Shown here: positions 2,091 to 5,472 of the stretch, piece after piece
Numbering within the stretch: position 1 is the first letter of the stretch
Layout: every line of letters begins with the position of its first letter
DNA from: a virus
IMG/VR virus record: IMGVR_UViG_3300025534_000004
Span: 83,744 to 147,743 of that record
Reading direction: 5' to 3' (one strand)
DNA: 64,000 nt
Position numbers and translations under genes: made by a program
The notes under the pieces: model-generated
Seen by the model: the letters and a program-made list of their open reading frames with translations, nothing else
What the model was told of the DNA's origin: nothing
Database searches by the model: none

Positions 2091-2545
2091 GGGAGGTCCG
2101 GACCGCCCTCGCCTCGGACCGGTTACAGGCTTCCGTGGGTGTGCGGGACTATCTGATGGCGCGGGCCAAGCTCAAGCAGCAGCGACGCGCTGCGTGAGGA
2201 AGAACATGGATGCATAGGCGACCCCGTTGTCGATCCTGTCGTCAGGAAGCAGGCCGACGAGGATTGCCTTTCTTTCCATGCAGGTTTCGATGAGATCGTT
2301 CATACCGGCTCCCATCTTGAATTTGTACTATTTCATCGATCTCGCCACGGGCCGCTACTGGTCCTCGAACGCTCAGGATTTCGTCGCGCCTGCTGATGCA
2401 ACGCCGCTGACGTGGTCCGACCGCGTATACCGTGGTGCGCCCGCTGCTCGACGATCCGGACTTCCGATATACCATGCTGGCCGTCGATGACGCTTCCGGT
2501 CGCGCCGTTCTGCTTCGTCGGCTCAAAGGGCACTATCAGGTTAGA

Positions 2546-4111
2546 TCACGCAGCCACTAGGGCTGGTGTCGTCCCTGATTTCACGGACGCCTCGCGGCGT
2601 TTGGATGACCTCACCACGGCCAGCGACACCCCACCGAAGTAAGGGTTCGTCATTCGTGGGTCGGCGGGGGCACCCCTGCTCCCGGTTCTGCCCGGCCGCA
2701 TGGACCGGACACGTCGCTCCCCGAAGGCGCGCACGACTTCGGCAAGGACAGACGCCTTCGACTGGAACACCGAACCGATAGCCAGCGCACGGCGCTGGCC
2801 GATGTTGGGTGCCGCATTGAGGTCGGCGTGCTTGGTGTGGCCGCACCACAGGCACCGGAAGGTGCCTTGTGATGGGCGATTGCGCTTGTCCACGTAGCCG
2901 CAGGCGTTGCAGGTCTGCGACGAATAGGCCGGGTTGACCTCGGTGGACGTGATGCCGAACCGCTGTTCGATGTCGGCCAATTTCGACTGGATGACGGACC
3001 TGCCGCAGTTCCGCAGGATGGCGTTCAGGCGTCGGGACAGGTCCGGGTTGCGGAAGTCCAGCCGCTCAAGAACCAGTTCCTTCGGGCGCCCCTGCGCCAC
3101 GAGGTGGTTCAGGACGCGGCCGACCTCGGTGCGGAGGAACCCGCGCACGTCCTCGACCAGCGCCCGATACCGCTTGCTGTCGCGGGGCTTCTTCCCGGCC
3201 CGCTGCTGGCTGGCGGCGATCATCGTGAGCAGGGCGTCGTAGCGCCGCAGGCGCCTGAGCCAGCCCTGCCCGAGCAACTGGCCCTCGGAGGTGGCGAATA
3301 GTGTGGAGAGGCCGAAGTCGAGCGCGATGACGCCGTGACCATTGTAGTCAGCACGCGACTTGGCGCACGCCTCGCCCATGTCGGTGACGACGCCGAAGGT
3401 CAGCCGCCCCTCGCGGTTCAGATTGACCTGCACGCCGTTGGTGACACGACCCGGCCGCTCCGCATGGTAGTCGTAGGTCAGCAGCGGGACGGCGATTTTC
3501 CGGCCCGGCTCCATGGTGGACAGGTTGACCCACCAGCCGACCTTGCCGCCCTGCGTGGCCTTGGTCGGGGCCGCGAGGCAGGCGGCCCGGTGGTCGAGGC
3601 GCATGGAGATGCGGGACAGGTCCGGCCTGCGGTGCCGCCCCATGACATGCCGCATGATGGACCGCGCCAGTCGCCGCACGTCGCCGGGGATAATTTCCCC
3701 GGTGTCCTTCATGGCGATGTCCGCCCGGAGGAACCACGCTCCCATGCGGTTCACGACGTGGAGCATGTGCTTGGTGTCGGGCGGCAGGGTGCTCCGGTTC
3801 ACCGCGTCGCGGAATTCGTTGGCGCGGTTGCTGATCCAGCCCTGCAACTGGCCGACGACCTGATACCGGCACATCTGGACCCGGTTCGCCGCGCCGATGA
3901 CGGCGGCGAAGGTCGTCTTGTCCACGTCGTGGTTCTTGTTGAACCGGCCCGTCTCGAAGAACAGCCGCCACTGCTCGCGCCCTAGCAACACCGCGCCCCG
4001 GCGATACGCCGCCAGCAGGTCCAGCACCTTCGCCCGCTTACCCGCCGTCAAGTTCGACGGCAGGAGGTCGGTGCGGTGGACCGGCGGGTGTTCGGGGCGC
4101 TTGCGTGCCAT
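2546..4111 (-). CDS. tnpB: TnpB-family RNA-guided endonuclease
   Basis: RuvC-I VIALDFGL, RuvC-II LVLERL, VNPAYSSQTCNACG..CLWCG zinc finger, RuvC-III HADLNAAPNI. Confidence 0.92.
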   Translation of the reverse strand: MARKRPEHPPVHRTDLLPSNLTAGKRAKVLDLLAAYRRGAVLLGREQWRLFFETGRFNKNHDVDKTTFAAVIGAANRVQMCRYQVVGQLQGWISNRANEFRDAVNRSTLPPDTKHMLHVVNRMGAWFLRADIAMKDTGEIIPGDVRRLARSIMRHVMGRHRRPDLSRISMRLDHRAACLAAPTKATQGGKVGWWVNLSTMEPGRKIAVPLLTYDYHAERPGRVTNGVQVNLNREGRLTFGVVTDMGEACAKSRADYNGHGVIALDFGLSTLFATSEGQLLGQGWLRRLRRYDALLTMIAASQQRAGKKPRDSKRYRALVEDVRGFLRTEVGRVLNHLVAQGRPKELVLERLDFRNPDLSRRLNAILRNCGRSVIQSKLADIEQRFGITSTEVNPAYSSQTCNACGYVDKRNRPSQGTFRCLWCGHTKHADLNAAPNIGQRRALAIGSVFQSKASVLAEVVRAFGERRVRSMRPGRTGSRGAPADPRMTNPYFGGVSLAVVRSSKRREASVKSGTTPALVAA

Positions 4112-5076
4112 CAGGCCGCTTTCGCCGTGACGAAGCCGTAGGACAGCAACCGCCCTTCGCCGTTGCGGACCATCTGCGTCATCCGGTCGAGGCAGGCGTC
4201 ACCCTTGCGGTTCCAGCGGAAGGTGGCCTCGCTGGCATACCTGCCGAGGTGCTTGACGCTGATCTGGTGCCAGACGCCGATGACGGCGCGGCGCATGAAG
4301 CCGTTGAAGGATTCGACCCGGTTGACGTGAACCCGGTGCCCTGTCGCCTCATCGGTGCGGGCATACTCGCGGTCGGAGTGATTGACCGAGAGGTGAGGCT
4401 GGTTCTTGCCGATGTGCTTGTAGGCCGGGAGGCCGTCCGTCATCACCGTGGCCTTCGGGTCCACCACCCCGTCCAGTGCCTCAGAAATCGCGGCCTTGCC
4501 GTGCGTCGGGATGACCTTCGCCACCACATCTCCGCCACGTTCGGCGGCCACGAGAACGAGCGGGCGCTTGGTGCCCCGTCCTTTCGGGTTGGCGGGCGGC
4601 GGCTCGCTGTCGTCGTGGTCACGGGACGGCTTGGCCCGCTTCCGGGGCGGCGCACCCGCATACATCTCGTCAATCTCGACCACCCCGGCGAGAATGGGAT
4701 TGGCTTCGGCCATCATTGCCCGGATGCGGTGCCCGAGGTGCCATGCGGTCGGGTATGAGACGCCCAACATCTCGCCCAACTTGACCGCGCTGATACCCTT
4801 GCTGGATGCCACAATCAGGTAGAACGCCTGCAACCATGTCAGCAGGGGCAAATGCGTCCGGTGCATCGGCGTCCCCGCCGTGACCGAGAAGTGCTTCCGG
4901 CAACCCGAGCAGCACCAGACCCGCTTCGTCCCGATCCACCACGCCTTGCCGACGAGGCCGCAGTGGTAGCACTCAGGGCCGTTCGGCCACCGGGCGTGCT
5001 CGAACCACGCCCGAGCGGCGTCCTCGTCGGGGAACATGGCGTTGAAGGCACGGAGGGACATGGACTGCTGACTCAC
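4111..5076 (-). CDS. IS1595-family (ISXO2-like) DDE transposase
   Basis: Zn ribbon RWPNGPECYHCG..CSGCRKHFSVTAGT, HTH, VEIDEMY, VMTDGLPAY, SVNHS, HVNRVESF. Confidence 0.95.
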   Translation of the reverse strand: MSQQSMSLRAFNAMFPDEDAARAWFEHARWPNGPECYHCGLVGKAWWIGTKRVWCCSGCRKHFSVTAGTPMHRTHLPLLTWLQAFYLIVASSKGISAVKLGEMLGVSYPTAWHLGHRIRAMMAEANPILAGVVEIDEMYAGAPPRKRAKPSRDHDDSEPPPANPKGRGTKRPLVLVAAERGGDVVAKVIPTHGKAAISEALDGVVDPKATVMTDGLPAYKHIGKNQPHLSVNHSDREYARTDEATGHRVHVNRVESFNGFMRRAVIGVWHQISVKHLGRYASEATFRWNRKGDACLDRMTQMVRNGEGRLLSYGFVTAKAA

Positions 5077-5154
5077 GTTGCGACACTACATCTATTCAGC
5101 GTGTTCGTCAACCTGATAGGTCCGGGCTCAAATATCTGATCGGCATTCAGCGAA

Positions 5155-5472
5155 GTGCCCGTCACGCCGGAGATGCTCATCGAGGCTCTCCGCCCGCACG
5201 ACGCGGTGTTGTGGTCCCATCTGGCGCTGGTTGATCATAAGGATGTCGTGGTGTCCGGGCGTCCGGTCAGGGATTTCGATCCCGAGGGCTGTGCCGAGCG
5301 TCTTTCGCGGATCGGAGTCTCGCCCGCGAATTACCGGATCGTCCCGCTCGGCAGTCTCCTGCTCAATGAGGAAGGCGCAGCGATGGTGATGCTCGCCGGA
5401 GGGAAGGCCGTCGGCCTCGACGCCGCCCGCGCTATCGCGGCAGAATGCAGTTTCGTAGAACTTCTTTCTTGA
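5155..5472 (+). CDS. hypothetical protein (possibly 3' part of IS-disrupted gene)
   Basis: Coding-like ORF directly after the IS, without clear RBS. Confidence 0.45.
   Translation: MPVTPEMLIEALRPHDAVLWSHLALVDHKDVVVSGRPVRDFDPEGCAERLSRIGVSPANYRIVPLGSLLLNEEGAAMVMLAGGKAVGLDAARAIAAECSFVELLS

Follow-up and report, generated by a model that had tools for sequence, protein, structure and literature searches.

The stretch analysed here, hereafter the window, comprises 64,000 nucleotides (positions 83,744 to 147,743) of a 147.7-kb IMG/VR virus record, IMGVR_UViG_3300025534_000004. On its minus strand it carries a 2597-bp insertion sequence of the IS1595 family (2528..5124), which encodes a DDE transposase (tnpA) and the RNA-guided nuclease TnpB. 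Comparison with its relatives supports an IS1595-TnpB element in which the guide RNA incorporates the terminal inverted repeat (IR) and the 8-bp target duplication would seed the guide next to a purine-T-A (R-T-A) motif. The confidence that we attach to the parts of this model differs. [quoted passage not shown] With moderate confidence, we also propose the full model, in which R-T-A is the target-adjacent motif (TAM) and the guide starts with the duplication. A first-pass annotation, made from the letters of the window, had predicted an omegaRNA at 2500-2720 that runs through the terminal IR, with a guide beginning at the duplication.

All features of the element lie on the minus strand, and helix arms are given below 5′ to 3′, in descending coordinates. 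The element was delimited by its Pfam domains, its inverted repeats, the 8-bp duplication, and the point at which homology to relatives ends. The tnpA gene (4111..5076) encodes an IS1595/ISXO2-type transposase of 321 aa with the N-terminal zinc ribbon of IS1595 (PF12760, E 5e-9) and the DDE domain of ISXO2/IS1595 (PF12762, E 1.6e-32). Its stop codon overlaps the start of tnpB (TGATG), and the latter (2546..4111) encodes a protein of 521 aa (PF07282, E 7e-15). Sequence and relatives together define the left IR, CGGACCTATCAGGTT, at 5110..5124 and the right IR, AACCTGATAGTGCCC, at 2528..2542. The element is flanked by an exact repeat of TTTGAGCC, with the left copy at 5125..5132 and the right copy at 2520..2527, so the element end at 2528 and the duplication stand as the first-pass annotation had placed them. 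Flank comparison adds a TAM-like motif, ATA, directly 5′ of the left duplication (5133..5135). The distance from the tnpB stop to the element end is 18 nt and constant in most relatives.

The protein has the RuvC D-E-D triad (D265, E349, and D430) and a CxxC...CxxC zinc ribbon (C401/C404/C420/C423) that characterize TnpB, and its profile matches the solved Cas12f/TnpB chains. When 33 homologues were aligned, D265, D430, and all four cysteines proved invariant, while at least 90% of the sequences had E349. Similarity to the solved chains ends near residue 441-448 of 521. Together with the position of the catalytic aspartate, D430, this bears out the tail of about 80 aa past RuvC-III that had been noted from the sequence. 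The nucleotides that encode this tail are the subject of the following analysis.

The last ~300 nt of 25 right ends were aligned with MAFFT without structural information, and ten helices were written on the alignment. Their arms are at 2799-2793/2787-2781 (helix 1), 2749-2744/2719-2713 (helix 2), 2742-2734/2729-2721 (helix 3), 2711-2703/2697-2689 (helix 4), 2683-2677/2672-2666 (helix 5), 2659-2655/2618-2614 (helix 6), 2644-2639/2634-2629 (helix 7, with a UUCG loop), 2600-2596/2591-2587 (helix 8, with a GNRA loop), 2579-2574/2540-2535 (helix 9, which pairs with the IR), and 2565-2561/2555-2551 (helix 10). Together they comprise 65 pairs, 34 of which changed on both sides among the 25 ends. Of the cells in these helices, 86.8% were paired, as opposed to 37.7-44.3% when partners were slid by 1-3 columns and 75.6% in shuffles. 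The covariation score was 0.284 (0.05-0.08 slid, 0.127 shuffled), and 153 cells were changed on both sides (22-50 slid, 53.7 shuffled). None of the 500 shuffles reached any of the five observed measures.

The details of the helices are in line with RNA. In most relatives the UUCG loop is retained with its C-G closure, coded by "YFGG", and relatives carrying the GNRA hairpin show GCGA, GCAA, GAAA, GUGA, GGGA, and GUAA loops; six relatives have a different hairpin at that site. One stem reads GAAGUCG/CGCCUUC in the window, with one mismatch, and GAACUCG/CGAGUUC, GAACUGG/CCAGUUC, or GAAUUGG/CCAAUUC in relatives. In general, amino-acid changes in the tail arise as such paired nucleotide changes. 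G-U cells outnumber A-C cells (131 vs 76), which favours the tnpB sense strand as the structured one.

A covariance model from homologous ends, the check that had been suggested for the predicted RNA, was built on the last 163 nt and run on 91 sources (448 kb). It matched only tnpB 3′ ends of this clade, with a single site in the window (2528-2690, minus strand), and gave zero matches to 28 TnpB-less IS1595 loci. Eleven of its 14 matches were loci outside the training set. In the alignment made with the model, 86.7% of cells were paired and the covariation score was 0.369, although a model-fitted alignment leans to its own structure.

Taken together, covariation, the codon-position test described below, and the covariance model delimit a candidate omegaRNA scaffold of ten conserved helices at 2528..2799, reaching the transposon end. 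The predicted structured RNA over the tnpB 3′ end is thus matched by a covarying sense-strand structure, although its extent, ~2799 to 2528, is larger than the interval 2500-2720 first given. The short repeats on which that prediction had drawn all occur where they were listed (CAGCC 2551-2555/GGCTG 2561-2565, ACGCC 2587-2591/GGCGT 2596-2600, and GGTGTCG 2565-2571/CGACACC 2624-2630). The first two correspond to helices 10 and 8 and are conserved with compensatory changes. The third is not conserved: as a long-range GGUGUCG/CGACACC pairing it had 46.5% of cells paired, a value reached by 216 of 500 shuffles, and it was rejected. Another candidate, an extra helix around helix 10 (ACUCA/UGAGU) seen by eye in ends of the L002 type, is not kept in the lineage of the window. 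Opposite-strand open reading frames (ORFs), called over the tail in some metagenome records, were also set aside, as conservation there is paired and not codon-like. No terminator-like site was found between the tnpB stop and the flank.

Helix 9 ties the structure to the transposon end. Its 5′ arm, AUCAGG (2579-2574), pairs with CCUGAU (2540-2535) in the right repeat, and helix 10 lies between the two arms. In relatives with other repeats both arms change together (AUCGCC/GGCGAU, AUUUAC/GUAAAU, GUUGCG/CGCAAU, and, with a G-U pair, AUCAGG/CUUGAU), often via G-U pairs. The covariation of this helix alone could be a matter of DNA, because the right repeat must match the left. We nevertheless argue for the level of RNA, because wobble pairs occur where the left repeat is an exact complement and because the subterminal copy is found at a fixed distance mainly at the right end. 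Of 15 elements, five have an exact inverted copy of this kind near the right end, in each case 47 nt away from it, whereas one has such a copy near the left end, at another distance. Since the right IR appears to be paired within the scaffold, the RNA must run through it, as the first-pass annotation had proposed, and the IR is not the guide. That the IR itself is the guide was considered and ruled out on this ground. The predicted guide has to be sought 3′ of the IR, at the element boundary or no more than a few bases away from it.

The boundary itself is well defined by relatives. We gathered about 35 loci, mostly via exact-protein look-ups; scans of genome and metagenome contigs added few close relatives among the matches listed, and a search of 400 genomes of one class found the TnpB in an already known Azospirillum genome only. 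One locus, L292, which stems from an unpublished genome (G245), was excluded throughout. Close relatives of the protein (56-94% identity) number in the hundreds and come from Azospirillum, Indioceanicola, Acidiphilium, Parvibaculum, Ramlibacter, Methylacidimicrobium, and many metagenomes. Carriers of the element include several alphaproteobacteria, Ramlibacter (Betaproteobacteria), Methylacidimicrobium (Verrucomicrobiota), and phages. Many relatives are on contigs of ~2.6 kb, i.e., the repeat assembled alone. DNA similarity among relatives stops exactly at 2528 and the outer flanks are unrelated, as expected if the guide is derived from the flank. Like the window copy, 15 independent insertions and two more distant elements have the terminal repeats and perfect 8-bp duplications of IS1595. 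Four of the 15 are identical copies in one 386-kb contig, and, judging by these copies, the element is active.

The flanks also revealed a one-sided motif. In all 22 distinct left flanks, the duplication is directly preceded on its 5′ side by R (13 A, 9 G), T, and A, each in 22/22 cases. The first duplicated base is A or T (W) in all 22 left flanks and in 32/32 distinct right flanks; it may be part of the TAM, of the scaffold, or of the guide. No mirror image (TAY) occurs at positions 9-11 after the right end in the tabulated flanks. From the base frequencies of these flanks we estimate that such a four-base match would arise by chance at <1% of sites. R-T-A is also found in L009 (47% TnpB identity), L280 (~62-65%), and L271. 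In contrast, it is absent in either orientation in eight TnpB-less alphaproteobacterial IS1595 elements that have duplications and 35-43% transposase identity.

Located 5′ of the left end, this fixed short motif precedes the predicted target on the strand of the guide, which is the location required of a TAM, and we predict that it acts as one. The window's ATA forms the end of ATCAGATA, put forward as a candidate TAM by the first-pass annotation; the last three bases of that sequence proved to be the conserved, one-sided R-T-A of 22/22 left flanks and three later ones.

We infer that this RNA is produced and that TnpB binds it and, by analogy with the TnpB proteins of IS605 and IS607, where its guide starts and how long it is, that the motif functions as a TAM, and that cleavage and homing take place. 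In this model, the tnpA-tnpB transcript would continue past the 3′ end of tnpB and, via the right inverted repeat, into the flank. The last ~270 nt inside the element (2799-2528) would fold as the TnpB guide-RNA scaffold, with one helix using the inverted repeat, and the guide would be copied from the flank, starting with the 8-bp target duplication (UUUGAGCC GACGAAGC...). For the window, TnpB/omegaRNA geometry predicts the guide TTTGAGCC-GACGAAGC at 2512..2527, consisting of the right copy of the duplication as its putative first 8 nt and the next 8 nt of flank, with a length of 16 nt assumed.

Insertion would take place 8 bp downstream of R-T-A, with the orientation of the element fixed. The uninterrupted site, composed of RTA, the duplication, and the right flank, would then offer a TAM with a full guide match. 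At the left junction of an occupied site the TAM would be kept, with only 8 nt matching, and at the right junction the match would be full, but CCC stands in place of RTA. Because neither occupied junction has both the TAM and a full match, TnpB would cut only copies of the site that are free of the element, and if such a cut were repaired from an occupied copy, the element would be restored or spread.

Several observations weigh against this model or weaken its evidence. Neither an empty allele nor a sister phage was found, as an exact 22-mer of the reconstructed empty site was unmatched in IMG/VR and a search of a phage collection returned no similar DNA. Cut-and-paste excision leaves a break and not a resealed site, which makes the benefit from TnpB less obvious than in IS605 (PMC13565253). 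No Rfam family matches the RNA, and the four matches elsewhere in the element are at chance level, each with E >1. Folded as a single sequence, the region does only modestly better than its shuffles (z = -1.7), and the strand bias is also modest (86.8% vs 83.2% paired). A pseudoknot or partner was sought for the terminal 7 nt (AGUGCCC), and no covarying column was found. The covariation of helix 9 is partly confounded, given that the transposase needs the right IR to match the left. Left and right flanks do not match as a duplication in 6 of 21 two-ended copies (L163, L164, L166, L173, L271, and L082); each single flank still obeys R-T-A/W, and the mismatches likely result from recombination between copies or from assembly joins across the repeat. 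Finally, R-T-A could be a pure target preference of the transposase clade, and the TnpB-less comparators are only eight, at only 35-43% transposase identity.

This last point leads to the alternative that survives best, although we consider it unlikely. According to it, the helices are a real TnpB scaffold, R-T-A/W reflects the target preference of the transposase clade and is not a TAM, and the guide may start elsewhere. For instance, the constrained first base could be absorbed into the scaffold, as is the right-flank nucleotide in IS607 TnpBs. The A or T at that position in 32/32 right flanks could indeed be a requirement of the scaffold or of the transposase, RNAs of IS607 and Fanzor do absorb bases of the flank or duplication into their scaffolds (PMC10711439), and the identity of a TAM is not readable from sequence. 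However, the motif is one-sided and sits exactly at the place required of a TAM relative to the guide strand, and in IS605/IS607 systems the target motif of the transposase coincides with the TAM (PMC13565253). Moreover, the duplication is variable beyond its first base, so it cannot be scaffold.

A second alternative is that the helices serve the transposon or the mRNA, either as transposase-binding or DNA-hairpin features or in 3′ stability or translational control of the message, and that TnpB uses another RNA or none. The reuse of the left-IR 6-mer in helix 9 is what a transposase site would show, and a match to a known RNA family is absent. Against it, nine other compensating helices, together with the UUCG and GNRA loops, span 270 nt into the coding sequence, beyond a transposase site. 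In addition, the subterminal complement is found at the tnpB end only, and wobble pairs take the place of exact repeats. The position, size, and orientation of the structure fit omegaRNA scaffolds at tnpB 3′ ends, and a solo 165-nt copy of the region persists in an Azospirillum plasmid. We consider a role limited to the transposon or the message quite improbable.

The remaining question was whether the conserved tail could by itself explain the pattern. Over residues 12-425, conservation at third-codon positions falls short of that at positions 1-2 by 0.17-0.37 (about 0.27 in the gene body), and over the last ~95 codons (residues 427-521) this gap shrinks to 0.03-0.13. AlphaFold2 gives a predicted local distance difference test score (pLDDT) below 50 at residues 473-480 and 493-521, though the peptide is partly conserved. 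The codon-position, pLDDT, and G-U/A-C results, three independent lines of evidence, agree, which argues that the constraint acts on nucleotides and not on the protein. It is thus very improbable that the structure is a by-product of coding conservation and high G+C, with a conserved peptide and incidental helices: the peptide has invariant residues in the 33 homologues (G477, P485, R486, N489, and F492) and the single-sequence z-score is weak, but third positions are more conserved precisely in the tail, its amino-acid changes are paired nucleotide changes that preserve helices, slid and shuffled controls fail, and residues 473-480 and 493-521 are predicted to be disordered.

Pairing of TnpB with DDE transposases has been described before. 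Altae-Tran et al. (2023, PNAS, PMC10691335) describe, in the parts of the paper devoted to them, six DDE-associated TnpB branches (DDE-1 to DDE-6) that have inverted terminal repeats and a tnpB 3′ end at most 250 bp from the transposon end. Those parts of its main text name only IS630 (DDE-6), and in them IS1595, duplications, TAM position, and RNA structure go unmentioned. As far as these descriptions extend, the present clade resembles the six branches in having TnpB beside a DDE transposase within inverted repeats, here with the tnpB end 18 nt away, and in having solo tnpB relatives in which the same right end is retained (here L170 and L273). Relative to the same descriptions, it adds a scaffold helix that contains the IR and a TAM-like motif outside a variable 8-bp duplication. 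A 2026 review lists ISL2, IS630, and IS1031 as DDE partners and considers the prokaryotic pairing rare, with a mechanism that is only conjectured (PMC13565253).

In its mode of action, the TnpB module seems to resemble that of IS200/IS605 or IS607. In ISDra2 (IS200/IS605; PDB 8EXA, 8H1J), as in our element, the scaffold overlies the 3′ end of tnpB and borders on the right end, the right flank supplies the guide (here by prediction), and a TAM-like motif is located 5′ of the left end, so that the motif and a full guide match coincide only at the empty site. The transposons themselves differ. ISDra2 has a Y1 transposase and hairpin left and right ends, whereas the element studied here has a DDE transposase, inverted repeats, and, between the TAM-like motif and the element, an 8-bp duplication that would start the guide. 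Its TnpB (521 aa, as compared with 408 aa) matches that of ISDra2 weakly, over the RuvC/zinc-ribbon part (E 1.6e-5). The hallmarks of IS200/IS605 or IS607 elements, i.e., a Y1 HUH or serine-recombinase TnpA without IRs and without a duplication, are not those of our element.

A different kind of likeness exists with the eukaryotic Fanzor systems. In the right-end element RNAs (reRNAs) of Fanzor1 and Fanzor2*, the terminal inverted repeat is within the scaffold, and a short fixed duplication (for example, TA or TTAA) belongs to the scaffold at the 3′ side and to the TAM at the 5′ side (PMC10711439). Both systems thus combine a cut-and-paste transposase with a guide RNA that runs through the terminal inverted repeat within its scaffold, although for our element this RNA is predicted. 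In Fanzor both the IR and the duplication are scaffold; here the IR is inside (helix 9) and the duplication cannot be, because it varies at 7 of its 8 positions. We read this 8-bp duplication as guide, and the host is a bacteriophage or bacterium and not a eukaryote.

With the IS1595 family as recorded in ISfinder, including its passenger subgroups ISNwi1+/ISPna2+/ISNha5, the element shares the DDE_Tnp_IS1595 domain, the N-terminal zinc ribbon, the IRs, and the 8-bp duplication. It differs in that the passenger is TnpB with its putative RNA and in that its transposase reaches no more than 43% identity with the closest TnpB-less members found. It also inserts in a specific orientation next to R-T-A/W, which is absent in those TnpB-less relatives. 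Seven TnpB-less IS1595 elements from alphaproteobacterial genomes (L286, L288, L294, L296, L297, L299, and L306) are 1.8-2.45 kb long, have perfect 8-bp duplications, and carry passenger ORFs of ~170-370 aa beside the transposase.

Several reduced or divergent copies were also observed. Another viral contig, UViG_3300025534_000006 in IMG/VR, has a copy of this element with an internal deletion (L082:2330-3483), in which the left end and the 5′ part of tnpA are joined to the last ~470 nt (tnpB 3′ end, RNA region, and right end). Its flanks mismatch as a duplication, and the left one still reads GTA followed by A. At about 208.8 kb in plasmid p2 of Azospirillum sp. TSA2s (NZ_CP039644.1), a solo ~165-nt scaffold region with the right end (L261:2986-3146) lies between annotated genes, with tnpB and the transposase absent upstream and a flank that begins with T. 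This copy could be a relic, or else a guide-RNA locus that stands alone.

Two TnpB relatives, L170:2501-4074 and L273:1501-3097 (75% and 71% identity), are solo phage copies: they keep the right end and the RNA region, have no DDE transposase, and their left repeat is undetectable. Their contexts are phage-like, with genes for a single-stranded DNA-binding protein (SSB) and DUF1064 beside the former and T4 gp2-like and TnsA-like genes beside the latter. A more distant element of Paracoccus haematequi (L010:1864-4830, TnpB 41% identity) has a TnpB that is apparently split in two. The duplication of this element matches at 7/8 positions (GTTGTTCC vs ATTGTTCC) with CCA instead of RTA 5′ of it, so either the element has decayed or its motif is another one.

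In the window, the element appears between small phage ORFs of the plus strand, 5155-5472 (+) and 2227-2490 (+), and not within a gene. The insertion looks intergenic, because no long ORF crosses the reconstructed empty site. A T4 gp15-like tail gene is located just upstream of the element, and the 105-aa ORF just beyond its left end is without relatives in IMG/VR. No further copies of the element were found in the rest of this viral genome.

Most of what is understood about OMEGA nucleases comes from IS605 and IS607 elements, whose excision leaves no scar and which do not duplicate their target. The clade described here is a concrete and testable answer to how TnpB could be paired with a DDE transposase, with the IR in the scaffold, the motif outside the duplication, and the duplication as the start of the guide. 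To our knowledge, insertion in one orientation next to an asymmetric motif is unusual for DDE transposases, and this suggests co-evolution with the nuclease. It is conceivable, although we regard it as doubtful, that target choice by the DDE transposase is mechanistically coupled to motif reading by TnpB, either via TAM recognition by TnpB that positions the transpososome or via a co-evolved, shared asymmetric recognition. If this were true, each new insertion would be born with a working TAM and with its own duplication as the guide seed, and the element would represent a prokaryotic DDE transposon with integration geometry dictated by an RNA-guided nuclease. For editing work, the clade would also provide a new TnpB that has a short motif of the R-T-A type. 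Carried by a phage, a module of this kind could behave like a homing endonuclease during co-infection.

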